Below, piece by piece: positions 289 to 21,470 of a stretch of DNA of 56,577 nucleotides. Source of the DNA: a virus (Duplodnaviria > Caudoviricetes). The notes beneath the pieces were generated by a model. That model did not search any database. It worked only from the letters and a program-made list of their open reading frames with translations, and was not told where the DNA came from. Both the position numbers and the translations under genes were made by a program. The stretch lies in IMG/VR virus record IMGVR_UViG_3300048855_000094, positions 1 through 56,577 of that record, one strand, 5' to 3'. Position 1 is the stretch's first letter. Every line of letters begins with the position of its first letter.

Positions 289-1515
289 ATGCCCCTCACA
301 GACACGGCCGTCCGGCAAGCAAAGCCCCGCGACAAGGACTACAGCCTCACTGACTCGGCCGGGCTGTCGCTGTTCGTTGCTGCAAAGGGCGCGAAGTCGT
401 GGCATTTCCGGTTCTCCTGGCACGGCCGCCAACCGCGCATCTCCCTCGGCACTTACCCTGAAGTCAGCCTCAAGCAAGCACGCGAACGCCGAGACCAGGC
501 CCGGTCGCTCATAGCAAAAGGAGTAGACCCGCGATCCGCCCGGCGTGAAGAAAAGCTGACCGCCGGCACCGGTGCAGTGAAAACCTTCGAAGTTGTCGCT
601 GAAGAATGGCATGCCTTCAAGTCACCGCGCATGACGGCGGCCCGGAAAGGCGGTGCAACTCAATCGCGCATGTACCTGGACAAAGACCTCATTCCGTCGC
701 TAGGCAAGTTGCCGATATCCGATATCCGTCGCAGCGATGTGCTGTCGACCATGCGAAGGGTTGAGGCCCGGGGCGCGTTGAATGTCGCGAGGAAGTGCCG
801 CTCGTGGCTGAATGAGATCTTCCGGTTCGCGATCGCCTCCGGCTACATAGAGCACAACCCTGCGTCCGACCTGGACATCGTCGCGGTGAAGGAACCGCCC
901 GAGAAGCACAACCCGATGCTTCGGCTGGCTGAGCTTCCCGAGTTTCTCAATGCGCTGCGGACGTTCACCGGCGCCGAATACACGCGCAGCGCGGTGAGGA
1001 TATTGCTGTTGACCGGCGTTCGCACTGGCGAGCTTCGGTTCGCCACCCGCGATCAGTTCGACCTGAACAGCGGTCTGTGGACGATTCCGCCGACAGGCGT
1101 GAAGCAGTTGCAGAAGTTGATACGAGGTAAGGATGGGGCGAAAGTGCCGCCTTATCTGGTGCCGCTGTCGCGGCAGGCGGTGGAGGAGATACGCAACGTC
1201 AAGGAAATGACCGGCGCCTACACACTGCTACTGCCGGGCCGAAGTGACCCGGCAAAGCCGATAAGCGACGGAACGGTCAACATGGCGTTGAAGCGTATGG
1301 GATATGAGGGCCGACTAACCGGGCACGGGATCCGCGCGACGATTTCGACTGCCCTGAACGAGATGGGTTACAACGAGGATTGGATCGAGGCGCAGCTGTC
1401 GCACGCCGGATCAAGCAAGATCCGGAAGACGTACAACCATGCAGAGTACGTGGAGCAAAGGCGGGAGATGATGCAGAACTGGGCTGACTACCTGGACAAG
1501 GTCGAGGCCAGTTAG
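289..1515 (+). CDS. int: Tyrosine integrase, P4-like, with N-terminal arm-binding domain
   Basis: MPLTDTAVRQAKP N-terminus, LLLTGVRTGELR (catalytic R), HGIR (HxxR), QLSH and YNHA (catalytic Y); adjacent to attL. Confidence 0.96.
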   Translation: MPLTDTAVRQAKPRDKDYSLTDSAGLSLFVAAKGAKSWHFRFSWHGRQPRISLGTYPEVSLKQARERRDQARSLIAKGVDPRSARREEKLTAGTGAVKTFEVVAEEWHAFKSPRMTAARKGGATQSRMYLDKDLIPSLGKLPISDIRRSDVLSTMRRVEARGALNVARKCRSWLNEIFRFAIASGYIEHNPASDLDIVAVKEPPEKHNPMLRLAELPEFLNALRTFTGAEYTRSAVRILLLTGVRTGELRFATRDQFDLNSGLWTIPPTGVKQLQKLIRGKDGAKVPPYLVPLSRQAVEEIRNVKEMTGAYTLLLPGRSDPAKPISDGTVNMALKRMGYEGRLTGHGIRATISTALNEMGYNEDWIEAQLSHAGSSKIRKTYNHAEYVEQRREMMQNWADYLDKVEAS

Positions 1516-2202: not shown

Positions 2203-3216
2203 ATGGCAATGGAGTTGTCTGAGTTTTTGACCAACAACCGCGTAGACGCCAGCACATGGACGGCCGCGAACATCAGCTGGGAAGATTTGACGCTGATTTA
2301 TGATGATCACCAAAGCAGAATTCGGCAGTTAGAAGACACGGCTGATTTTTTCGTAAAAAGTATTCAAGCGTTTGAGGGGGTACATTCGGTTAGGTGGCGT
2401 GTAAAATCTCCTGAGCATTTGATTGAGAAAATAATTCGTAAGCGTGGTGCGGCTGAGCCCAGCGAACGATATATGTCTATTAATGTGCAGAACTATCATG
2501 AAGTGGTGACAGATCTCATCGGTGTAAGAGCGCTTCATCTGTTCAAAGATGACTGTCTGGTTATCCATGATCAGGTCTCAGAAATGTGGGATCTTCACGA
2601 ACGCGCCGTGTCTTATATTCGACAAGGGGACACAACTGATTTCGCTGCGGCGTTGGAGGAACGGGATATAGTCTCGAAAGATCATCCTGCAGGATATCGT
2701 TCAATTCACTATGTTCTGAAGACGAAGCCTGCGTCTCGAGAGACATTGGTAGAAGTGCAAGTAAGAACGGTCTTCGAGGAAGGCTGGTCTGAAATAGATC
2801 ACAAGGTTAGGTACCCTAATTTTTCCAAAAATAGTCAGGTTGAAGATGTTCTCAAGGTGTTCAATCGATTAGCCGGGAGCGCAGATGAGATGGCTGGTTT
2901 CATCAGAAGCCTGAGCTTCGAGCTCGATCTGATGGACAAAGAAGTCGATGCAATAGCCCTAGAGCGAGACTCCGCGTTAGAGGAAATGCAGAAGCTCTTG
3001 ACACAGCTCGCAGATACTCAGGAGACGAAGGCCGAAATGGTCGCGAAAGCCGACCTGCTTCAAAAAGAGCTTAATAAGGTCAAGAAAGCTATAAACCAGA
3101 AGGCGGAGCATGACAGTAAGCTCCGAACCAAGGTGGCTATCAATAACCCCTGGGTTCTTACTGCCGAAGGGGTAAGTGGGCGGAATAAGTACCTTGTTAA
3201 ATCTTTCAAAGGGTAA
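2203..3216 (+). CDS. RelA/SpoT-domain small alarmone synthetase-like protein with C-terminal coiled coil
   Basis: Synthetase motifs RVKS, DLIGVR, GYRSIHY and EVQVRT...WSEIDH; AT-richer than flanks; opposite strand to the surrounding operon. Confidence 0.9.
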   Translation: MAMELSEFLTNNRVDASTWTAANISWEDLTLIYDDHQSRIRQLEDTADFFVKSIQAFEGVHSVRWRVKSPEHLIEKIIRKRGAAEPSERYMSINVQNYHEVVTDLIGVRALHLFKDDCLVIHDQVSEMWDLHERAVSYIRQGDTTDFAAALEERDIVSKDHPAGYRSIHYVLKTKPASRETLVEVQVRTVFEEGWSEIDHKVRYPNFSKNSQVEDVLKVFNRLAGSADEMAGFIRSLSFELDLMDKEVDAIALERDSALEEMQKLLTQLADTQETKAEMVAKADLLQKELNKVKKAINQKAEHDSKLRTKVAINNPWVLTAEGVSGRNKYLVKSFKG

Positions 3217-5874: not shown

Positions 5875-7125
5875 ATGACGGAAGATGAGCTTTTTGGCGG
5901 GTCTAGGGGTGAAGCTGCATTTGTGGAAGCAATAAAAGCGATTTTCCGGCATCTCAAAGTGACCGATATCGAAGTTATCGATAACGCGGCGAAATGTAAC
6001 TTCAGAGGTACCTCAGTTCTCGTCACAAGGTCAGAGCTTGTCGACTATTTTCTTTTTAAGTCGCTCGTCAAAGAGCGCACCGAGACTAGTGTCAGTGCAG
6101 ATGGATATCTTGAACAAGCTGTAGATGTCCACGGCAATGGTCCTGCGGCGTACAGGGTGTTTCGCGAAAATCGCGACATTGTTTTACAGCATGAGCAGTC
6201 AGGCTTCTCAGCGGAGCTCGGACCAATATCGACAAAGTTCGCGCTTCTATTAATCGACACTGAGAAGATGAGTTCCGATCTCCGGAGAATGATCTACCTC
6301 AGGTCACCTCGCGCGCGCGGAGAAAGCACCTTAAGCGAGTTTTTTTCGCGATTTCAAACGTTAAAAGTAATCGCCCCATCCGGCCATGCGTTAGGAAAAA
6401 ATCCAAAGCAACTGAAGTTGATTGGGGAAGCTACCTTATTTCATATTTCGTACGGTACAGGGATGGCGTTGATCGAGCTCAAGAGCTGGGAGCGCTCTTT
6501 TTTTCGATTGGCGAGTAATCGCACCGAATCTGTGCAGTTTCCGCTGCAAACATATAATCAAGAGCTCGTCGCTTATTATCAAATGGCCGTAGGTGCTGAG
6601 AGTCTGATACTTTCTTATCTAACCCTCTACAAGATTTTAGAGTACTTCTATACGGATGCTTCAGAGCACGTGCTGCATAAAAAAATCAAAGATCAGTTAT
6701 TGGCCCCTGACTTTTCGCATACCAAAGTAGCGAAGCTTAGAGATTTGGCTAAGATTGTAAGATCTTTTGACAATAAGATGAACGAAAAAGGAATGCTGCA
6801 GACGGTGCTTGAACAGAGGATTGATAAGGAAGAACTGAAGGTTTGGATCGAACGCTTCGAAGTGGAGTTCGGGCAGCACTTTACTGAAAATCATGAAATT
6901 TTTGGCAAGACCCAGAAAGTTGATCTTTCAGATAATCAAATTTTCCCTGGTATTAGCGCGCGTATTTACCAGATTCGAAACGCGCTTGTTCATAATAAAG
7001 AGGGAGAGGAGTCTCGATTTACACCATTTTCCGGGCAGGAGGGGATATTGACAAAGGAAGCTCCGCTCCTGCTCAGAATTGCGGAAGAACTTATCCAAAA
7101 ATCTGGAAAGGATATTCATCTGTGA
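5875..7125 (+). CDS. HEPN-like (RxxxxH) accessory protein
   Basis: YLTLYKILEYF helix and C-terminal IRNALVH motif; AT-rich insertion on the opposite strand. Confidence 0.65.
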   Translation: MTEDELFGGSRGEAAFVEAIKAIFRHLKVTDIEVIDNAAKCNFRGTSVLVTRSELVDYFLFKSLVKERTETSVSADGYLEQAVDVHGNGPAAYRVFRENRDIVLQHEQSGFSAELGPISTKFALLLIDTEKMSSDLRRMIYLRSPRARGESTLSEFFSRFQTLKVIAPSGHALGKNPKQLKLIGEATLFHISYGTGMALIELKSWERSFFRLASNRTESVQFPLQTYNQELVAYYQMAVGAESLILSYLTLYKILEYFYTDASEHVLHKKIKDQLLAPDFSHTKVAKLRDLAKIVRSFDNKMNEKGMLQTVLEQRIDKEELKVWIERFEVEFGQHFTENHEIFGKTQKVDLSDNQIFPGISARIYQIRNALVHNKEGEESRFTPFSGQEGILTKEAPLLLRIAEELIQKSGKDIHL

Positions 7126-7603
7126 ATTGCGACGTGTGGCACAAAAACAGCCGGCGTGCATTTTGACGTCCTACCAATCCGCCGTTGTAAAAGCTGTGCT
7201 AAGAAGACGCGTCGACGTCTCTGCCACCGGAAGGTCGGTAGCTGGTGTAATTGATTGCACTGGCCGTGGCTGTGGGAACGCCCGGGCAGTGATACTTTCG
7301 GTGTGATAGCACAGGCCTCTATTCAGGTTCGAGACTTGTCCGTCGATTGCCGCGGTTTGGTCTCGAGCCTTAAGCGAAGACCCTAAGATGGGGGAAGTGC
7401 CCTGCGCTTAGCTCCCCACTGGAAGGAAGCGTCGGTGATGACCAGACTGCCTCAAGTCCGGGAGGCACTGAGCCGCGCGATCACGTCAGTTGGCAACTTC
7501 CTGCGGCTCCCCTAGCAGGCCAGGCCTCCGACAGTTCGGTGGCGAACAGATTGGGAATGGGCTATACGTATTGGCCGGCAAGGGCCCGGCCGAAGGAGGG
7601 ATC

Positions 7604-8308
7604 ATGGGAAAGAAGCTTGAAATTCTAGGCGGCCTGGCCACAGCGGTATACCTGATTATCATCATTGCGTTTTTAGCTACAAGATTTGGAGAGTTTGCAT
7701 CACTAAAGCTTAACGAGTTGGGTGATTTCTTGGCTGGTTCATTTGGGCCTATCGCTTTTCTGTGGCTTGTTTTAGGGTTTCTACAGCAGGGTCGGGAACT
7801 AAAGTTAAGTACTGACGCACTTCACCTTCAAGCTCAGGAGCTAAAGCATTCCGTAGAACAGCAGTCGATCATGGCGGATGCTGCTGTTAGGCAGATTGAG
7901 GCAGCTCGCCAGGCTTTGGATCTGCAAATACAAGATGCCGAACGCGCGGTGGTAGCTGACTTCGAAGTTACACCATCATTGAAGTCAGGTAAGGACGGGC
8001 TGGTACTTAATAGGATAAAAATTCTGAATAATAAAAATAATGCCTACCGGGTCACTAGCGAATTCCGTGGGGATCTTCCATTTTCTGACCATCGTAACCA
8101 CGGAACGATGAAAGAGGGGGCTCAAGTAGAGGTGGAGATATTGTTTCCGCCGGGATCAAGTGATGGCAAGGGTGGTGAGTTATTAGTCATGTATGAAGAT
8201 GTAAATTCTACTACCAGAATCGACGTATTTATCGTGAAAGTCACTTCAGAAGATTGGCTAAAAATAGATAAAGTCCGAAACAAAAGCTCCCGACTAGTTA
8301 AGGTTTAG
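7604..8308 (+). CDS. Two-TM membrane protein with coiled coil and C-terminal soluble domain
   Basis: Two hydrophobic helices flanking LNELGDFLAG; Gln-rich coiled coil; GGAGGG RBS before ATG 7604. Confidence 0.75.
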   Translation: MGKKLEILGGLATAVYLIIIIAFLATRFGEFASLKLNELGDFLAGSFGPIAFLWLVLGFLQQGRELKLSTDALHLQAQELKHSVEQQSIMADAAVRQIEAARQALDLQIQDAERAVVADFEVTPSLKSGKDGLVLNRIKILNNKNNAYRVTSEFRGDLPFSDHRNHGTMKEGAQVEVEILFPPGSSDGKGGELLVMYEDVNSTTRIDVFIVKVTSEDWLKIDKVRNKSSRLVKV

Positions 8309-9799: not shown

Positions 9800-10042
9800 T
9801 CATCTCACCCGCGCCCTCCGCTGAAGGCGGCCACGCTCCGCCGCCGACAACACCCGAGGTCTGCGCTTGAGCACCGTGTCAGGATCAATCCAGTCCCGCC
9901 GCTTCGGCGGGATCGGGTTTCCCGTGAAGCATTCACCCTGCAAAATCTGCCTGCCGCGGCTCTCGAACTCCGCCACGGCCGCCGCCAGTTCGGCGGACTT
10001 GATCCGGTTTTCCGCGTCAGGATTCAAGCTGAAGCTGATCAT
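9800..10042 (-). CDS. Hypothetical phage protein
   Basis: 80 aa; ATGA overlap with the exonuclease stop. Confidence 0.6.
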   Translation of the reverse strand: MISFSLNPDAENRIKSAELAAAVAEFESRGRQILQGECFTGNPIPPKRRDWIDPDTVLKRRPRVLSAAERGRLQRRARVR

Positions 10043-11688
10043 GCCGCCACCTGCTGCAGCTCAACGCCATCCATGTTGAAGGCATCGCCGTGAATCAGCA
10101 CCAGGTCGTCCAACGCTCCCCAGTTCACCGTCAGCACCGCAAGTGGGGCGCGGCCTTCGTAGACAGCCTTCACCAGCGCCTCCAGATCGGTGACCTTCGC
10201 TTCCAGTTTCGTGGGTTTCGGCGGCACTTTCGCCGATGGCGCGGCAGAGGTGACGCGCCGCGCGGGCGGCTGAGCCAAGTTGGCAGCAGGAGTAGGCGTC
10301 GGCGCTTTCCCCACAGCGGCTGCAGCCTCCGTGAGTTCGTTCGCTTCCCGCTCCAGCCGCCGCGCCTCTTGCTGACGAATCTGCTCGCGCTGCGCCTCAA
10401 GGCGAATCTCTTCGGCGCGCTGGTGCTCACTGATACGGACCTTGATCAGCGGGACCAGGTCCTCGTTCTCCTTCAGCACCAGTTGCTGCAGATCGTTGAA
10501 CAGGAACACGTAGTCAGCAGCGAGCTCAGCGAAGCTGTTGAGGTTGGTGCGCATTCTGTCTCCGGTTTGGCTGGCTTCGATTTTCGCCCGGGCCAGTTCG
10601 CTGTCAGCCGCGTCGCGCAGGCTGGCGATCGTCTTTTTGCCCTTGATGGCGCCGGCGAAGTCAGCAACGATCTTCGGCATCCGCGCCTTGCCGCCGAGCG
10701 TGTTGTTGATCTGGTCGACGTGCGTCTGCAGGGACTTCGCGGCGGTCATCACGATGTCTTCCCTGATCGCGACTTTGCGGGCCTTGACCAGCTTGTCGAG
10801 TTCCAGCCGCTTGGCGCGCGCTTCGCTGCTGATCTCGTCGATCGCGCGGAAGAGGGCGTCGATGCTCTCTGTCTGGCTCAGCGCGTGCTGCTTCGCCGCT
10901 GCCAGGCGATCTTCGACTTCGCTGCACCACTTCACTGTCTTCTCGGCGTCGGCGAAATGCTGGTCGGTCTGCAGATCCGTGTTGATGGCCGCGAACACGG
11001 CCAGCGAGTGAGCCTTGAACTGCTCCAGGTTGCTTGCGGTCACCATGCCCGTGACTTCGATGCGTAACGCCGGGAGCGCGTCCGGCGTTTTGCCTACAGC
11101 CTCGGCCGCTGTTTCGCCCGGCTCATAGGCGGCCAGATCTGCTTCAAACTGCTTCCAGCCGGCAACGAGCTTCGCGGCACGGCCGCGTACGGGGAAATAC
11201 TCCATCGAGACGAAATTCTCTTCGGTACCGTCGGAGCAGACGAAGATGACCTTTTCGGCGTCCGCGACGAGCAGTTGCTGCTCGAGCTGCCAGTAGTAGT
11301 GGGCGTCCAGCTCACCGGCGCGCACGTCGGCGGCGAGCTGCTCGTTCCACATTTTGTGCTCGAACAGGATCTCGCCCAGCATGGTGCAGCCATCGAGGGA
11401 GGCCAGCAGGTCGCCTTCGGTACCGACGAGGGGGAACAGGTCTTCATCCAGGCGGGCCTCAAGTATCGGCCGGGCGCTGGCTTCGGCTTCGTGGCCTTTG
11501 TCGAAGAGGTACTTCTGCACCCACCACGAGATATCGCGATCAAGTCCCGTCTTCTTCGCGTGCAGCAGCTCGGTGCGTTTCAACTGCTTCGAAGCGCCCA
11601 TCATCGCCGGGGCTTCCGATGCGGTGTGGTAGTTGGCGCGTAGCGCGTGCCATTCGGGGCTTCTCTGCGCGACGTTGTGGATTTTCAT
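10039..11688 (-). CDS. YqaJ/lambda-exonuclease-family recombination nuclease with long coiled-coil tail
   Basis: QRSPEWHALR, TASEAPAMMG, ASLDG, FEHK and YYWQLEQQL motifs. Confidence 0.9.
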   Translation of the reverse strand: MKIHNVAQRSPEWHALRANYHTASEAPAMMGASKQLKRTELLHAKKTGLDRDISWWVQKYLFDKGHEAEASARPILEARLDEDLFPLVGTEGDLLASLDGCTMLGEILFEHKMWNEQLAADVRAGELDAHYYWQLEQQLLVADAEKVIFVCSDGTEENFVSMEYFPVRGRAAKLVAGWKQFEADLAAYEPGETAAEAVGKTPDALPALRIEVTGMVTASNLEQFKAHSLAVFAAINTDLQTDQHFADAEKTVKWCSEVEDRLAAAKQHALSQTESIDALFRAIDEISSEARAKRLELDKLVKARKVAIREDIVMTAAKSLQTHVDQINNTLGGKARMPKIVADFAGAIKGKKTIASLRDAADSELARAKIEASQTGDRMRTNLNSFAELAADYVFLFNDLQQLVLKENEDLVPLIKVRISEHQRAEEIRLEAQREQIRQQEARRLEREANELTEAAAAVGKAPTPTPAANLAQPPARRVTSAAPSAKVPPKPTKLEAKVTDLEALVKAVYEGRAPLAVLTVNWGALDDLVLIHGDAFNMDGVELQQVAA

Positions 11689-12572
11689 GCGGACTCTCCT
11701 TCGATGGGCGCGAGGTTGTTGATCTGCTCAATCTGTTGCTCGCTCAGGGTGTATTTGCTGCTGATGGTGGCGATGAGGTGCCCGGGCGATGACTTGCGGT
11801 CGTCGACGGACTTCTGCCACTTGGGCAGGTTCTCGGCGAACTTGGCGTCCGGATACGGCGGCAGGCCGGCAGGCTCGGCACTTCGGGTCGGGGACACGTC
11901 GCGAACGCGCGGGGCGCTTTCTTCCAGTTCGTCGGGGCTATACACGCCAAGAATCACGTCGGGGCAGTAGAGGCGTGACCAGCGCTTGGTCGCGAGGTAG
12001 GCGAGTTGCTGGCGCGGATCATCAGCCCACAGCGTGCTGTTGCGCGTTCGTGCCTGGGCCAGCAGCAGTTCGAGCACGCGCGGTTCGTCTTCGCCACGGA
12101 AGGTCGCCCATACCTTCACGCCCAAGCCTTCTTCGTCGGCCATCTTCCAGCCAGGTACGCGGTACTCGCCTTTCTCGCCTGACTTGATCGTGAATTTGCC
12201 GATCACCTTTTCCCACGCGCCGAACCACTCGTAATGCAAGCGATCCAGAACCGGTGCGCACGTCGTGATGACGGCGTTGACCAGCTGCGCCTCATAGCCG
12301 AGGACGCCGTTCACCAGGTGGGTTTTCTGGGCGACGGCGAAGGGGTTCATCTTCCACTGCATCGACTGCATCACCACGGCGAGGCAATCGGCGGCGTTGC
12401 CGTTGAAGTGTTTCGGCATCGTTGCGCGGCCGCCGGCCATGACTTCTGCCAGCCGCATCATCTTGTCGAGGCTGTCGCCATCCAGCACCAGTGCGCTGGT
12501 GCTGGTCGCGGCGTGGGAAATCAGGTTGAGCTGGTGCTCGTGCGCCACGGGGGCGGTGTTTGGTGCGGACAC
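11685..12572 (-). CDS. recT: RecT-family ssDNA annealing protein
   Basis: DCLAVVMQSMQWKMNPFAVAQKT, GYEAQLVNA, W..DP.QQLAY; GTG start after AAGGAG; coupled to the exonuclease. Confidence 0.85.
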   Translation of the reverse strand: MSAPNTAPVAHEHQLNLISHAATSTSALVLDGDSLDKMMRLAEVMAGGRATMPKHFNGNAADCLAVVMQSMQWKMNPFAVAQKTHLVNGVLGYEAQLVNAVITTCAPVLDRLHYEWFGAWEKVIGKFTIKSGEKGEYRVPGWKMADEEGLGVKVWATFRGEDEPRVLELLLAQARTRNSTLWADDPRQQLAYLATKRWSRLYCPDVILGVYSPDELEESAPRVRDVSPTRSAEPAGLPPYPDAKFAENLPKWQKSVDDRKSSPGHLIATISSKYTLSEQQIEQINNLAPIEGESA

Positions 12573-12627
12573 GGTTGCTCCTTGCGCCATGCCGTTGCCG
12601 GCGCGCTGCGATGAAACGGGGAGGGGG

Positions 12628-12741
12628 TTACTGGGTGATGTGCTCGGCGTAGGCGCTGACCAACATCCACAGAATGCAAACAAGAAAGGTGACTGCCGAA
12701 CCGCGCCAGTAAGCCGCGCGACGGACTCGTTGACGGCTCAC
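12628..12741 (-). CDS. 37-aa single-TM small protein
   Basis: GTG start overlapping the upstream TGA; basic N-terminus then a hydrophobic stretch (VTFLVCILWMLVSAY); below the ORF-track cutoff. Confidence 0.5.
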   Translation of the reverse strand: MSRQRVRRAAYWRGSAVTFLVCILWMLVSAYAEHITQ

Positions 12742-13391: not shown

Positions 13392-13675
13392 GCCGCCCAC
13401 CGTGATCGGTGCATGCGGCTGTCGATCTCGTGCCAGAGCGCAACGCGGATGGCGGTGTCGTGCTGGGCGGCGATGGTGCGCAGATCCGAAGGCTGGACGT
13501 CCTGCGGCTTACCGTTGCGGTCATAAGTGGTGCCTGCGAGCACGAGGTAATCAAGCTCGCGAGTGCCCATGCAGTCCCAGTCGCTCTCGCGGTTATCAGG
13601 CTGGGGCGGCGTGTTCTCGCAATGCGTCACCTCAACCTCTAGGACGAACTCCTCAACAATTATTTCGTAAGTCAT
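13388..13675 (-). CDS. Hypothetical phage protein
   Basis: AGGAGG RBS; 95 aa. Confidence 0.7.
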   Translation of the reverse strand: MTYEIIVEEFVLEVEVTHCENTPPQPDNRESDWDCMGTRELDYLVLAGTTYDRNGKPQDVQPSDLRTIAAQHDTAIRVALWHEIDSRMHRSRWAA

Positions 13676-13727
13676 GGTCGCCTCCTGGGCGAGCTATTGA
13701 GCGGCCCCGACGGGCGCCGCTTTGGGG

Positions 13728-13931
13728 CTAAGAAGCCAGCTGATCCGCAGGTTGGGTTGCGCTCGATAGCTGGTCTTGAATGCGCTGGTAGATTTCCTCC
13801 CTGTGCACCTGAATTTCGCGGGGGGCGGTGATCCCGATCCAGACCTGCTGGCCCTGAGCTCGGGTGACGGTGATCTGGATGTCGTCGTTGATACGGATGG
13901 TTTGGCCGGGTCGACGGGTGAGGATGAGCAT
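13728..13931 (-). CDS. csrA: CsrA/RsmA-family RNA-binding protein (phage-encoded)
   Basis: MLILTRR...[18 protein letters not shown] closely matches the family consensus. Confidence 0.93.
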
Positions 13932-14477
13932 CTTGAGTTCCTTCTGACGTTGGTTTCCCAATGCAGCCTGTTGCCAGGCTGCATCAGTGAAATCGCTTTC
14001 CGGGCCGCGATCCGCTGCTGGCGTCGATCGCGGTTTGTGGCGTTAACGATGTCGGCGCGCGCTACGCCGCCGATGGCTTCGCGCGAGTTCTGTGCGGCCT
14101 TGAGCTTCCCTGTTCACAGTGCCTACATCGACTTCGGCGCTGTGGTCGTGGGGTCAGATGTTCGCTACACGACTGTCAACTGCAGCTCTGGCGGCCTACT
14201 GAGCAGGGCAGTTCGTCGTGGGTTGCCGGTCCGAGATCCGGCTGGGCTTAGTGGTGCATCGGCGCTTTCCTCCTGATGGTGTTTGTTCTCCACCACACAA
14301 CACTGCCGAGTCATCTCTCACCGGCGCCGCACATTTCGTGTTCGGTGCATTGCCGGTTTGGGTGTGTGGTTTCGCGTGCTTGCGTTGGGAAGCACGGCAG
14401 CTATCCAGAGGCTGCATGGACGACGGTTTAGCTTTGTTGCCACCGGTTTGCCGGTACGTCGTTGGGTCACGTCGGAT

Positions 14478-14490
14478 TGTGTAAAGAGCG
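14478..14490 (-). promoter_or_regulatory. boxA-like antitermination element
   Basis: Minus strand reads CGCTCTTTACACA, ~55 nt downstream of pL; resembles lambda and rrn boxA. Confidence 0.65.
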
Positions 14491-14548
14491 ACCTCGGATG
14501 AGGTGGGCCCGATTCGGGCCGTCGCACCAAGCAATCTGCGACGACACA

Positions 14549-14591
14549 AATATAAGCCTGCTTATCTTCATCAGTCAATAAGCGTGCTTAT
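14549..14591 (-). promoter_or_regulatory. pL promoter with two operators (oL)
   Basis: TTGACT-N18-TATATT on the minus strand; operators ATAAGCCTGCTTAT (14552-14565) and ATAAGCGTGCTTAT (14578-14591). Confidence 0.8.
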
Positions 14592-14610
14592 ATTATTTTC
14601 CCCAGGCATG

Positions 14611-14632
14611 AAAAAGCCCGCACCAGGCGGGC
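14611..14632 (-). terminator. Intrinsic terminator insulating pL
   Basis: GCCCGC stem followed by a T-tract on the minus strand. Confidence 0.7.
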
Positions 14633-14707
14633 AGAAGTACGAAGGAGAGTCCATCTTGAGCAGATGGTCGTCAGAGCCTACTGGAGGTTGGATGCATGGG
14701 GCAGGCT

Positions 14708-14732
14708 AAAAAGCCCGGCTTTATACCGGGCT
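14708..14732 (-). terminator. Intrinsic terminator of the cI operon
   Basis: AGCCCGG-loop-CCGGGCT followed by TTTT on the minus strand. Confidence 0.7.
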
Positions 14733-14803
14733 GAGGATGTTCATTAAACAGGGGGTGCGGCTTGAGGATTGGATTGCTTCTGAATTCAGCCTTCAGTTGG
14801 TTC

Positions 14804-15232
14804 TCAGATGGCCATGACTACCATGGAAAATCGCCGACCTGACACAAAGGCGTAGCTCAGGCTGAGAGTCAGTAGGAAAGCGATCGCAGTACCCACCGGT
14901 TTCAGCAGACTGTCATTGACCACCAGTGCAATGCAGCTGACGGCCATAGTGGCCAGCATGAAGCCGCAGGTAAGGAACGTATCTCTCATCAGCACCCGAA
15001 AGTGTCCAGTTTTCCGCATGTTCGCTATCAAAGTCTTTTCGACAAGAGCTGTGATTATCGCGACTGCAGCTATCATGAAGCCTAGCAAGGTGGCGCAAAC
15101 CCCGGCAACGACTCCGCCAGCAGCATAAAGCTGCGATGAACTAGCGGCACTCCATTTCCAGAAGCAGAACGCTACCAAGCCAGCTAGTACAATCTTAGGA
15201 AACAGTCTCGTCCAACGAACCGAAGTACTCAT
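14804..15232 (-). CDS. Small ~4-TM membrane protein at the rexB position
   Basis: Four hydrophobic segments in ~142 aa; overlaps the end of the upstream gene. Confidence 0.8.
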   Translation of the reverse strand: MSTSVRWTRLFPKIVLAGLVAFCFWKWSAASSSQLYAAGGVVAGVCATLLGFMIAAVAIITALVEKTLIANMRKTGHFRVLMRDTFLTCGFMLATMAVSCIALVVNDSLLKPVGTAIAFLLTLSLSYAFVSGRRFSMVVMAI

Positions 15233-16103
15233 CAATTTGCCCCTGGCATTCTTCCATGGCCGTGTCTATCGCTCCATACATCGTCCCGCTTGGCGGGTAT
15301 TTCGCATTCGTCTGAACCATTTGGGAAGACGATACGCGATCAGCGATGAGATCAATCGGGTGTTCAATGCCCTCATCATACACATCAGCTCTCGCGCTGG
15401 TTGCCCCAAGGTTTGCTGCATGTGCCAGCGCCGTTTTCAGACGACTCGATAGGTGACCACTTGTATCAGCGCGTCTCATGTCCACGCCCATCTCGATATG
15501 AATTGAGTCAGCGTCAGCCCCATTCATCATCTGCATCAAGCCTCGGGTGAACTCGTCATCGTTGTACATTTCGGGATTAGCCGGACGTGGAATGACGAGC
15601 TTAATGCGTTTGAGCGTTATGTCCCTGCTCATCAGCCGCCGAGCTGCGTCCGGCTCCAGAACCGGTCCAGCAAAAACAGAGGTGGACCACATTTCGCTTA
15701 AAAATCGAGCAAATTGTGCTGCGGTATTACCATGCGTGTTGCGACACCAGGCCAAGATCTGACGTCGGGGATAAAATACAAAAAAATTCTTCTCAACGAG
15801 CCCTTGGTCAGCTTCCAGTTCGATCTCCTCAGCGTCCTCTCCAGCAGCGCCAATTTCGGGAAGGTCGCTGGTTCTGAATTTTCTAAACTGGCCAGCATAG
15901 GTCGCTCCAGCGCCTCGACCCCTTTTCACCATCTTCCAAATTTCTCGGGTGTAGCCCGCCACGCTTAGCGCTTGAGTTGTTTCTCCATCATCATCGACGA
16001 TGTCTGTGAAACCGCTCTCAACTGACGGAATGTCAGCAGTTGGCTGCACAGACATCTGAAAGAAATCAATGTGATAAACCTTGTCCTGTAATACATCTAC
16101 CAT
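15195..16103 (-). CDS. Soluble 302-aa protein at the rexA position (possibly DUF6731-like; unverified)
   Basis: Intact ORF immediately downstream of cI on the same strand; no motif identified with certainty. Confidence 0.75.
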   Translation of the reverse strand: MVDVLQDKVYHIDFFQMSVQPTADIPSVESGFTDIVDDDGETTQALSVAGYTREIWKMVKRGRGAGATYAGQFRKFRTSDLPEIGAAGEDAEEIELEADQGLVEKNFFVFYPRRQILAWCRNTHGNTAAQFARFLSEMWSTSVFAGPVLEPDAARRLMSRDITLKRIKLVIPRPANPEMYNDDEFTRGLMQMMNGADADSIHIEMGVDMRRADTSGHLSSRLKTALAHAANLGATSARADVYDEGIEHPIDLIADRVSSSQMVQTNAKYPPSGTMYGAIDTAMEECQGQIDEYFGSLDETVS

Positions 16104-16209: not shown

Positions 16210-16869
16210 TCAAAATTTCATCAACGCCCTAACCACCACCCCGATGATCCGGCAGTCGGGTCCAAACGCCTCCATCGGGTAATTCCCGTTCAATGGCTTG
16301 AGGAACCTTCTGCCTCCGTCATCGACAAGTTTCTTGAAGGTCGCCCTGCTGCAATCGCCCAATTTGGCAACGACTAGCTTGCCAGAATGAACCTCGGCCT
16401 CAGTGTCAACCAGAATTAGACTCCCCTCTGGCACGCTTTGCCCCACCGAAGATGTCATTGAGTCACCTTTAACTTCAAGCCAAAAAGCAGGACCTTTAGA
16501 GGTGTAGTCAGACAATTCATAATCATTCGAGAGGCCAGCCGGATATCGCGCAACTGCCTCGTCCCAGGTTCCGGCCGATTCCCAAGAGATGACCGGATAC
16601 CGAAACATCACGTATGGCGGGGGAGACGGCTCAGCGCTCAATGCTTCCCCCCCAGCTCCAGACAGCATTTCTCCTATACCGTCAGAAAGCCAAATTGCGC
16701 TCACACCACACACGTGAGCGAGCTTCGCCAAATGTGCGCTTTGAAGGTTTTTTCCGGTTTCCAGTTGAGAGATTACTGGCTGCTCTACACCTGCCTTCAC
16801 TGCAAGTGCTTTCTGCGTCAGATGCCCGTGCTTGCGGGCCAGCTTCATTCGATCAGCAAGTGTATTCAT
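16210..16869 (-). CDS. cI: CI repressor (XRE HTH plus S24 autopeptidase)
   Basis: HTH LTQKALA..AGVEQPVISQLETG; cleavage site SAG; VKGDSM and ATFKKL catalytic motifs. Confidence 0.95.
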   Translation of the reverse strand: MNTLADRMKLARKHGHLTQKALAVKAGVEQPVISQLETGKNLQSAHLAKLAHVCGVSAIWLSDGIGEMLSGAGGEALSAEPSPPPYVMFRYPVISWESAGTWDEAVARYPAGLSNDYELSDYTSKGPAFWLEVKGDSMTSSVGQSVPEGSLILVDTEAEVHSGKLVVAKLGDCSRATFKKLVDDGGRRFLKPLNGNYPMEAFGPDCRIIGVVVRALMKF

Positions 16870-16876
16870 ATTCGGA

Positions 16877-16942
16877 AATTTATAAGTTCGCTTATTCGCT
16901 TGCAAATAAGTGTGCTTCTTCTTAGGATATAAGCATGCTTAT
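16877..16942. promoter_or_regulatory. oR region: three operators with divergent pR and pRM
   Basis: Operators ATAAG-N4-CTT(A/C)T at 16882, 16906 and 16929; pR TTGCAA-N17-TAGGAT (+); pRM TTGCAA-N17-TAAATT (-). Confidence 0.82.
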
Positions 16943-20295: not shown

Positions 20296-20892
20296 GTGAT
20301 CGGACAGGCAGCAAAGAAGTCGCTGCTGACGCGCAGGAAGCGCCAGTGCGCCAATCCCGTATGCGCTGCTGAGTTCGTTCCGTTCCAACTGGGCCAGAAG
20401 GTGTGCACTTGGCAGTGCGGCCTGGCCATCGCCGTTACGCACCAAGACAAAGCTCGCAAGTCGCTCGCCCAGGTCGAGCGCCGGAACATTAAGGCCCGCA
20501 AGGAAAAGCTGAAGTCGAGATCCGAGCACATGAAGGACACGCAAACAGCCTTCAACGCCTGGGTGCGTGCCCGTGACGCCGGGCAGCCTTGCATCAGCTG
20601 CGGCCGCTTTCACCAGGGCAAGAACGACGCAGGGCACTACCGCACAGTCGCGAGCGCGCCAGAGCTTCGCTTCGAGCCGCTGAATTGCCATCTGCAGTGC
20701 TCGCCATGCAACACGCACAAGTCGGGCGACATCGTGAACTACCGGATCAGCCTGGTGCAGCGCATCGGCGCGGAGAAAGTCTCATGGCTTGAAGGCCCAC
20801 ATGCGCCGAAAAAATACACGGTCAGTGATCTGAAGGCGCTGACCACTCAGTACCGGGAACTGACCAGAGCATTGAAGAGGGGAGCAGCATGA
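20296..20892 (+). CDS. ninG: NinG/Rap-family endonuclease
   Basis: FNAWVRARD...PCISCG, DAGHYR, N.HLQC..CN. Confidence 0.92.
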   Translation: MIGQAAKKSLLTRRKRQCANPVCAAEFVPFQLGQKVCTWQCGLAIAVTHQDKARKSLAQVERRNIKARKEKLKSRSEHMKDTQTAFNAWVRARDAGQPCISCGRFHQGKNDAGHYRTVASAPELRFEPLNCHLQCSPCNTHKSGDIVNYRISLVQRIGAEKVSWLEGPHAPKKYTVSDLKALTTQYRELTRALKRGAA

Positions 20893-21470
20893 AGATTTTT
20901 TCCGCACGTCAGGCGTGGCATGACTGCACTTATAACCCGGCGCCGGGGCAGAGTTCGGAGGTGGTACAGCTCGGCGTCGTCGTCCAGAGCACGAAGCGCG
21001 GACCTACGGCGAACCACGCCATCCACAGCGCGCTGGCCGGGCACATCCAGTCGGCGATCGCCAAGCTACATCCCCAGGTCCGCGTGTTCGGCGAATACAT
21101 GTACGCCGCCAACCGGGACGACGATATCCGTGAGGCGGCGGAGGAGGTCGTGTTTGGCATGGTGCTCTCGAAGTCCAAGCGCATGACCGCGGCCAAGCGC
21201 GAGAAGCTGGGGTACGTGGTGAAGGGCGTGATGTGCCGGTACCGCTACATGCACCAGGGCGGGCAGTCGGCGAATCAGGATCCGCTGATTAAACCGGAGG
21301 GGTTTCGTGGTTGGCTGATGGCGGAGTATGGCGTGCGCCTTGAGTCGTGTAACTGGGACCGCGATTGGCAGTGCTTTGTGATGTTGGCTTTTGATTGCTG
21401 CGAGGACCTGGATCGCATGGCGTTGAGCCCAGTAGGGGCGGTGATCTATTCGATGAAGGCGGCCGCTTGA
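20889..21470 (+). CDS. Putative Q-like late antiterminator
   Basis: Position after ninG and directly upstream of a promoter-terminator pair; sequence family not confirmed. Confidence 0.55.
   Translation: MKIFSARQAWHDCTYNPAPGQSSEVVQLGVVVQSTKRGPTANHAIHSALAGHIQSAIAKLHPQVRVFGEYMYAANRDDDIREAAEEVVFGMVLSKSKRMTAAKREKLGYVVKGVMCRYRYMHQGGQSANQDPLIKPEGFRGWLMAEYGVRLESCNWDRDWQCFVMLAFDCCEDLDRMALSPVGAVIYSMKAAA

Follow-up and report, generated by a model that had tools for sequence, protein, structure and literature searches.

How does a lambda-like phage carry transcription through its early leftward operon when no N protein can be recognized among its genes? The question is raised by a viral DNA stretch of 56,577 nucleotides (56.6 kb; IMG/VR record IMGVR_UViG_3300048855_000094, Caudoviricetes), referred to here as the window, in which the left operon and the leader that precedes it lie on the minus strand. 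From a pL-like promoter to the ATG (13931) of the first gene, which encodes a CsrA-like regulator, about 610 nt run without a conserved open reading frame (ORF). Covariation controls passed on three alignments indicate that this leader is a conserved, modular, structured RNA, and its core is, on the comparisons made here, a new RNA family that is absent from Rfam 15. The leader probably controls how the early operon is read, and we tentatively favour, at somewhat less than even confidence, a cis-acting, N-independent element that would keep pL transcription resistant to Rho and terminators.

A conserved RNA core predicted to contain seven helices and a pseudoknot

The following elements were assigned to the core.

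14274 to ~14056, minus strand: core RNA of about 220 nt, starting with AGGAGG
14238-14242/14225-14229, minus strand: helix P1
14215-14220/14168-14173, minus strand: helix P2
14208-14213/14178-14183, minus strand: helix P3
14203-14207/14195-14199, minus strand: helix P4
14184-14188/14102-14106, minus strand: pseudoknot
14140-14144/14115-14119, minus strand: helix P5
14081-14085/14058-14062, minus strand: helix P6
14075-14077/14069-14071, minus strand: helix P7

Conserved single strands, among them ACCCCAYGACC and AGGGAAGCYCAAGGCC, lie within the core. The helices were set by hand and then tested against shuffled and slid controls. In A3, a MAFFT alignment of 22 window-type sequences that was fitted to no structure, the covariation score was 0.111 against 0.067 in shuffles, a value reached by none of 500, and slid controls stayed at or below 0.048. 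In A4, which holds 61 representatives aligned to a covariance model, 84.5% of 2507 cells were paired compared with 74.0% in shuffles, 247 cells had changed on both sides compared with 95.9 +/- 9.7, and the covariation score was 0.249 compared with 0.110 (slid controls at most 0.076); none of 500 shuffles reached any of these three values. Measures of A4 that count pairs or pair types were not significant, being reached by 75/500 and 209/500 shuffles, respectively.

Individual pairs of A4 switch identity in P1 (AU:38/GC:23), P2 (GC:31/AU:26 and AU:24/CG:20), P3 (GC:21/AU:17 and CG:40/GC:15), and P5 (AU:41/UA:17, GC:23/CG:22, and CG:35/GC:22), and a pseudoknot pair (GC:38/AU:23) is formed in 61/61 sequences. 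Compensatory changes can be followed by eye in P2 (CACGAC/GUCGUG, UCCGCGC/GCGCGGA, and CUCGCG/CGCGAG) and in P3 (AACUGC/GCAGUU, AGCUGC/GCAGCU, and GACUGC/GCAGUC). The inner pairs of P4 (59% paired) and P6 (57.1%) are weakly supported in A4, and the model R1, which served for genome searches, was built with a wrong P6 register (40.9% paired). Run on the MAFFT alignments, RNAalifold recovered P1, the long-range pairing of the pseudoknot, P5, P6/P7, and a terminal hairpin at the 3' end of the leader; P2 and P3 were missed owing to their conflict with the pseudoknot and to misalignment of the P2 3' strand. Two alternative pairings were rejected: the AGCCC after the mini-ORF stop codon (see below) showed no covariation with the 5' strand of the pseudoknot, and the P5-loop GCCGAU, considered as a partner of the P1 3' strand, is replaced by UUCAGAU in sequences like locus L061 without compensation.

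As to the strand, P7 contains 35 G-U cells that would be A-C mismatches if read on the other strand, while the overall count of G-U against A-C carries no strand signal (122 vs 131), only well-supported helices such as P7 discriminating. The folding energy of the leader was modestly better than that of shuffled sequences (z -2.56 for the sense and -2.29 for the antisense strand, 20 shuffles each); since the complement folds nearly as well, energy alone says little, and the comparative data give better support for the stems.

A minimal ORF opens the core

The AGGAGG with which the core starts forms part of a very short reading frame.

14248-14274, minus strand: mini-ORF (Met-His-His-stop), having AGGAGG as its Shine-Dalgarno (SD) sequence at 14269-14274, ATG at 14257-14259, CAC CAC, and TAA at 14248-14250

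Among 59 distinct 5' ends drawn from the 101 loci described below, 58 have a start codon 9 nt after the SD (ATG in 56, GTG in 2), the exception being locus L072 with AAG in its place. An in-frame stop follows after one (27) or two (31) sense codons; TAA, TAG, and TGA all occur, and sequences that stop at codon 3 lack the TAA of codon 4. Between start and stop, codons for Lys, Gln, His, Tyr, Pro, and other residues are found, giving 15 different mini-ORFs such as ATG AAG TAG, ATG CAG TAA, ATG AAG CAC TAA, and GTG AAG TGA. This pattern indicates that a start plus a very early stop is conserved, not a peptide, and that the mini-ORF is under selection. By its SD spacing, start, early in-frame stop, and conservation it falls, as far as sequence can tell, into the class of translated minigenes or start-stop ORFs.

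With its two or three codons and strong SD inside a pL-driven transcript, the mini-ORF resembles the bar minigenes of lambda and start-stop ORFs. The bar minigenes, with the sequence AUG AUA stop, are situated at other places of the lambda pL transcript and exert their effect through the drop-off of a single tRNA; unlike them, the element described here has varying sense codons and is embedded in a conserved RNA fold. It also recalls Rho-dependent attenuators of the tnaC type, in which a short leader ORF has a stop that abuts conserved RNA in a transcript exposed to Rho. Leader peptides of that type, however, have 12 to ~30 residues and sense their ligand via the nascent chain, which two or three codons cannot do.

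These features bear on a reading in which the leader would be a conditional attenuator or switch: whether transcription or translation continues into the early operon would depend on a ribosome occupying the mini-ORF, or on a ligand or protein that binds the pseudoknotted core. The strict retention of SD, start, and stop around one or two sense codons of free identity speaks for it, and a terminating ribosome, given its footprint size, would cover the 5' strand of P1, which begins 6 nt past the stop codon. Extended invariant stretches of single strand, as in ligand- or protein-binding RNAs, fit as well, and in one RNA run the leader contig had a word depth of 384.6 against 105.7 for the next contig downstream, although such depths cannot rank regions. 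On the other side, no conserved alternative pairing emerged (AGCCC with the pseudoknot and GCCGAU with P1 were tried), downstream of the core there is no hairpin with a U tract that could serve as a terminator, and no riboswitch of Rfam matched. We regard such a switch as possible but rather doubtful; if true, it would link the lysis-lysogeny programme to the translational state of the host.

An rrn-type boxA and a linked upstream module

Upstream of the core, the leader carries a boxA of the ribosomal RNA (rrn) type and a second set of helices.

14491-14542, minus strand: leader 5' end, in which three hairpins precede boxA (from sequence and fold; the region varies among relatives)
14478-14490, minus strand: boxA, rrn-type, CGCUCUUUACACA
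14286-14477, minus strand: boxA-linked upstream RNA module (14286-14497 when boxA is included)
14457-14462/14420-14425, minus strand: helix U2
14451-14454/14443-14446, minus strand: helix U3
14411-14415/14397-14401, minus strand: helix U4, with the loop CUCUGGAUA
14390-14396/14375-14381, minus strand: helix U5
14363-14369/14293-14299, minus strand: helix U6

The motif CGCTCTTTA at 14482-14490 is the sole exact boxA in the window. With up to one mismatch there are nine matches, against a shuffle mean of 10.7, and the motif alone is thus not significant; its weight rests on its conservation in relatives, where the boxA that had been noticed in the leader of the window is kept. A boxA-like motif was found upstream of the core in 80 of the 95 loci that have at least 300 nt of upstream DNA, and at least four of the remaining 15 have CGCTCTTTT. 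The distance from boxA to the core is mostly 203-207 nt and otherwise 196-256 nt, and it stays near 203 nt even where the sequences of the upstream modules are unrelated.

The rrn boxA consensus is GCUCUUUAACAA-like, and the motif is of this type in the window (CGCTCTTTACACA) and in relatives (CGCTCTTTAACAA). As in rrn and CRISPR leaders, a boxA close to the consensus (CGCUCUUUAACAA in P. aeruginosa versions) stands at the head of a long, structured transcript that is not translated, and hairpins precede this boxA, as boxB does in rrn leaders. Unlike those leaders, this one is phage-borne and repressor-controlled, and its core with the mini-ORF has no rrn counterpart. In lambda nut sites, boxA is followed within ~10 nt by the boxB hairpin that binds the Arg-rich N protein encoded downstream. 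The leader shares with lambda nutL its place as the first element of the pL transcript, a boxA, and a long structured stretch before the first gene; it differs in having no N homologue, a longer boxA of the rrn type, no second site in the pR arm, and no boxB-like hairpin directly after boxA, the first conserved helix following ~20 nt downstream.

The upstream module was compared in A5, an alignment of the 21 relatives that share the module of the window, using helices from the stem list of the original prediction. The covariation score was 0.137 against 0.061 in shuffles (0/500 reaching it; slid controls at most 0.043), and 83.4% of cells were paired against 78.9%. Pairs change in U2 (UA:13/GC:4/AU:3), U5 (CG:17/UA:4 and CG:4/GC:4/AU:3), and U6 (UA:17/CG:3). 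U4 (14397-14415) is invariant in 21/21 window-type relatives, and by eye its loop CUCUGGA(U)A sits on a different stem in another subtype and in phage MR13. RNAalifold recovered no structure from the mixed set of upstream sequences.

The 3' end of the leader

Between the core and csrA the leader contains a variable stretch and a conserved hairpin.

13985-14055, minus strand: variable 3' stretch with a hairpin at 14005-14033 (from alignment and fold)
13985-13994, minus strand: conserved flank GAUUUCACUG
13961-13984, minus strand: terminal hairpin of 10 bp with a GCAA loop, followed by GGGAAACC; this part covers 13952-13984

The hairpin at 14005-14033 occurs in the window alone among 41 sequences compared. 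The terminal hairpin keeps its pairing while its stem changes sequence (AU:18/CG:18 and GC:19/CG:17 in A1, 42 sequences), and its flanks, GAUUUCACUG and GGGAARYCAAC, are conserved. As it has no U tract, it is not an intrinsic terminator. The family profile gave 16 extra partial matches to this part, further downstream in other loci. Second copies were found at L008 2356-2415, L015 1834-1893, and L033 1302-1364 and in 13 further loci, in a repeated layout of GAUUUC, hairpin, GGGAAGUCAAC, and SD; the copy of L008 (phage phi1), the sole one compared with annotation, lies just before a coding sequence (CDS). The terminal-hairpin part may thus be a separate intergenic cassette, to judge by these repeats.

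Such copies also touch on a passive role, in which structure and a parked 5' ribosome would shield the early mRNA from RNase E and set processing sites. Ribosome binding at the 5' end and 5' stem-loops stabilize bacterial mRNAs, and a 5' leader that has a minimal ORF behind a strong SD would fit, as would the extra terminal-hairpin matches and the placement of the L008 copy. Simple stabilizers, however, need no 220 nt of conserved sequence, no pseudoknot, no invariant single strands, and no boxA, and we hold this explanation to be quite unlikely.

The original prediction, made from the letters of this stretch, had described the leader as a hairpin-dense regulatory RNA, and covariation above shuffled controls in A3, A4, and A5 (0/500 in each) bears out the structured RNA. 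Many of its stems held: 14225-14242 is P1, 14115-14144 is P5, 14375-14396 is U5, 14292-14299/14363-14370 is U6, 13961-13984 is the terminal hairpin, and 14397-14415 is U4, found in all 21 relatives. The stem at 14320-14357 is partly supported (53.6% paired), and that at 14442-14455 (U3) shows compensatory variation by eye, with 60.8% paired in a MAFFT alignment that misaligns U3. The stem at 14005-14033 lies in a stretch absent from relatives, and the list had missed the mini-ORF, P2, P3, P4, P6, P7, and the pseudoknot.

The leader is not predicted to encode an N-like protein

The ORFs of the leader (minus strand: 117, 86, and 49 aa; plus strand: 166 aa) matched no PHROG family, and those of 117 and 49 aa had no Pfam match. 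Across 61 leaders the longest sense ORF ranges from 15 to 144 aa, and 1-nt indels separate relatives within the leader. The frame of the 117-aa ORF is open from AGGAGG in 10/61 sequences over 111 nt and in 5/61 over 231 nt; the other frame that is not that of the mini-ORF is open in 52/61 and 12/61, respectively, and 1-nt indels between types cross it. An Arg-rich 102-aa ORF with a TTG start in P. aeruginosa versions shares only the stretch that is conserved as RNA. These comparisons indicate that no protein is encoded in the leader beyond the mini-ORF, in agreement with the earlier view that no protein gene lies between pL and csrA.

The same view held that no N-like gene is present. None of the PHROG matches in the window names an N or Q antiterminator; the names in the left operon are limited to integrase, excisionase, methyltransferase, RecE, RecT, and CsrA-like regulator. 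No left-operon gene matched an N family of PHROG, and the leader has no conserved ORF. The genome paper on YA3, another lambdoid phage of P. aeruginosa, also states that no homologue of N was found (PMC7326022).

A small Arg-rich N-like protein could nevertheless be hidden in the leader, as the 117-aa ORF (14196-14549) or the 102-aa TTG ORF, with the conservation of the RNA being secondary. Both ORFs are basic and Arg-rich, and they share the frame in which the beginning of the core is read. Against this stand the few sequences in which the 117-aa frame is open, a TGA that this frame meets across the mini-ORF start wherever the mini-ORF begins ATG AAG, TTG starts without an SD, the missing family matches, the varying ORF lengths, and the indels between relatives, and Arg-rich translations are expected at 62% G+C. 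We consider a hidden protein highly improbable.

The leader heads the early operon of many Pseudomonas phages

The position of the leader is defined by the following neighbours.

14578-14573 (-35) and 14554-14549 (-10), minus strand: pL-like sigma-70 promoter, TTGACT-18-TATATT (10/12 matches in a promoter scan)
14578-14591 and 14552-14565, minus strand: two copies of an operator-like palindrome, ATAAGCnnGCTTAT, which overlap and flank the promoter
14616-14632: terminator hairpin just ahead of the promoter
13731-13931, minus strand: CsrA-like regulator of 67 aa, first gene of the operon, ATG at 13931 (Pfam CsrA, E 4e-24; PHROG CsrA-like regulator)
13938-13944, minus strand: SD of csrA, GAAGGAA

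From this promoter we infer a transcription start near 14541. A blastn search against phage records matched 14096-14291 of the window at 70-74% identity in 11 of the 21 matching records, all of P. aeruginosa phages; three (MR13, and MR15 twice) matched 14281-14419 only, and seven matched csrA only. In the regions inspected, the matching sequence is located downstream of the repressor, where the annotation shows either a gap or tiny 'hypothetical' genes. A MAFFT alignment of the relatives showed the promoter at the same place with differing operator sequences, a shared boxA, a variable stretch, the strongly conserved block, and differing first genes.

An exact pattern taken from the conserved block was found in 37 IMG/VR stretches, and a looser 16-mer pattern in at least 119 viral and 120 genome stretches, the latter mostly chance occurrences in unrelated taxa; of these genome stretches, L145 (Pseudomonas graminis) and L261 alone passed a profile search. 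When a profile of the first alignment was applied to 263 collected sequences, it gave 102 near-full-length matches and 101 usable loci of Pseudomonas phages or prophages, with 61 distinct representatives; the window itself contains one match. Among 151 genomes sampled from the genus to which Pseudomonas graminis belongs, model R1 detected the RNA in five, three times in full length, and one other genome has two copies. This patchy carriage is as expected of a prophage element. A plasmid search gave one match, in a 44-kb P. aeruginosa record. Two IMG/VR loci have a second partial core in tandem after the first (L081, 4114-4425 and 4445-4694; L131, 4283-4584 and 4020-4263), and two matches in Pseudomonas genomes (L266, G065:C24:44627-44728, and L267, G091:C25:100276-100369; E 1e-8 and 2e-7) cover only model positions 131-230, that is, P5-P7, which may act there as a sub-module in another context. 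Our results demonstrate that many lambda-like phages of Pseudomonas have this leader at the start of their early leftward operon, irrespective of immunity type and of the first gene.

A common P. aeruginosa form of the leader is represented among RNA-library contigs of four runs (four studies). Three contigs are short (549-636 nt, about the length of the leader) and correspond to 7287-7829, to 7289-7842 with 24 and 57 nt of flank, and to 7320-7974 of L022; one starts ~41 nt before boxA, at the start placed by the promoter alignment, and the fourth contig, of 38.8 kb, is uninformative. The short contigs are weak hints that fit a transcribed leader; they do not establish its ends or level.

In 21/101 loci the core is followed by a CsrA-like gene, from directly adjacent to ~2 kb away, and a strict link between core and CsrA was rejected on this count. 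The leader might nonetheless yield a stable trans-acting RNA that is cut from the pL transcript and titrates or guides a factor, for example, proteins of the Rsm/CsrA family. The short contigs are roughly coextensive with the leader, hairpins bound it, GGA occurs in or near loops (the U4 loop, the SD AGGAGGA, the P1 loop CUCGGA, and AGGGAAG), and the first gene here is a CsrA homologue, with one also found downstream in the loci just counted. Yet 80/101 loci have no CsrA-like gene in the available DNA, though 80/101 extend at least 1 kb downstream, the GGA of the P1 loop is not conserved (CGGG in many), and the fixed place behind pL and the link to boxA argue for cis action. In Rsm sponges such as RsmY and RsmZ, GGA hairpins are more numerous, and each RNA has a promoter and a terminator of its own; this leader contains a few GGA motifs, is part of an mRNA, and matches no Rsm family of Rfam. 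A trans-acting RNA is, in our judgement, unlikely. Several GGA motifs occur in the leader, among them those of the U4 loop and of the csrA SD, and the phage CsrA might regulate itself or interfere with host Rsm regulation.

Comparison with known RNA families and with HK022 put

An Rfam search had been suggested for the leader, and no family of Rfam 15 matched; four matches (E <=10) in 13400-15000 score 13-17 bits against cut-offs of 49-86, and the P. aeruginosa version had none at E <=1. In the library of papers searched, three core motif strings were unmatched, and topic searches gave no description.

The likeness to HK022 put, to which the original prediction had pointed, is one of setting: in both cases an RNA lies just downstream of an early promoter in a lambdoid phage without N, and the proposed cis role, termination resistance over many kb, is the same. 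Membership does not follow, since size, fold, copy number, and boxA all differ. As described, put measures ~70 nt, forms two stem-loops (a V shape with a triplex), occurs as putL and putR, and works without further factors (PMC9378689). It acts by binding the zinc-binding domain of the RNA polymerase beta' subunit. Against that description, the core has ~220 nt with seven helices and a pseudoknot, is set in a 600-nt leader as a single copy with no second one at pR, usually has a boxA, and begins with a mini-ORF. The presence of boxA suggests the involvement of Nus factors, unlike the factor-independent put.

Proposed role in early transcription

In the mechanism that we favour, the leader would act in cis on its own transcript, in place of the N/nut system. 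Elsewhere, boxA recruits NusB/NusE and suppresses Rho on long untranslated rRNA and CRISPR transcripts, a protection that fits an untranslated leader of 600 nt. Here it would recruit host NusB/NusE as in rRNA leaders, and polymerase would then not be stopped by Rho over these 600 nt; the folded core, together with a ribosome retained at the mini-ORF, would maintain this condition or carry it on into the operon, and read-through would reach the CsrA-like gene, RecT, and RecE and continue towards xis. The constant place behind pL, where operators and first genes vary, points to a job on the pL transcript itself. The single copy per phage fits a pL-specific task, and the pR arm of the window has no boxA and no core.

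Several observations weigh against this proposal. Nine representatives have a core without boxA within 260 nt and other 5' modules instead, and phages MR13 and MR15 have the boxA module without the core; the two parts can thus work apart, and the core may be a ribosome-sensing gate, a trans RNA, or a stabilizer instead. Should boxA suffice for Rho resistance, the core may have another task. A simple scan of the left arm gave terminator-like sites at background level (18 vs 14.6 +/- 3.2 in shuffles). As to the RNA itself, A4 leans towards the model to which it was aligned, much of the covariation separates a few clades, with fewer independent events than cells, and the RNA contigs might stem from library DNA or end where mosaic junctions lie, with which their breaks coincide.

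A more specific proposal, which we think improbable, is that the core is a new ribosome-coupled RNA device, in which a 70S ribosome on the two- or three-codon ORF and the pseudoknotted RNA would jointly act on the elongating polymerase, with or without a boxA-Nus complex, and would determine if a temperate phage has its early operon read. If true, it would be a third solution to early antitermination, independent of N and of put, and would report the translational capacity of the host to the lysis-lysogeny decision.

Gene order and other genes of the window

The overall gene order is lambda-like, according to Rfam, PHROG, and Pfam annotation.

40-123: tRNA, the only Rfam match at gathering score in the window
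289-1512: integrase
1515-1727: excisionase (xis)
left operon, minus strand: DNA methyltransferase (PHROG)
10042-11688, minus strand: RecE-like
11688-12683, minus strand: RecT-like
between the RecT-like and CsrA-like genes, minus strand: small ORFs
14807-15235 and 15198-16103, minus strand: ORFs in the rexAB position
16213-16905: cI-like repressor
plus-strand arm: cro-like, cII-like, O-like, DnaC-like, NinB, and NinG, in this order

The leftward operon had been put at ~12 kb; leftward genes are present, but three plus-strand ORFs (2203-3213, 5875-7122, and 7490-8305) interrupt the run, and pL transcription up to the methyltransferase and xis would pass antisense through the latter two. The product of the first, 337 aa long, contains a RelA_SpoT nucleotidyltransferase domain (Pfam E 5e-21; weak match to PADLOC PDC-S33) and is, by this domain, a small alarmone-synthetase-like moron near xis and on the strand opposite to the left operon. 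The product of 5875-7122 matches PADLOC DzbB (Dazbog; E 3.5e-12). Between the cI-like repressor and pL (14807-16103, minus strand), a 302-aa DUF6731 protein (Pfam E 3.5e-7; PHROG 7651, function unknown) and a 143-aa hydrophobic-looking ORF (PHROG 8552) occupy the rexA/rexB position; neither had a PADLOC match, and the two might form an exclusion or defence pair expressed from the prophage. A 193-aa plus-strand protein (20889-21467; PHROG 3373, function unknown; no Pfam match) follows NinG in the place of lambda Q and is a candidate late-gene regulator.

Implications for Pseudomonas lambda-like phages

Our findings bear on how lambda-like phages of Pseudomonas run their early operons without N, and offer the leader as a concrete, widespread candidate with covariation support. 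They add a sizeable family to the short list of phage leader RNAs, one with a minimal ORF that is conserved by its start and stop and not by its sense codons. Prophages of this kind are common in P. aeruginosa isolates, which gives the leader a bearing on the biology of prophage induction.

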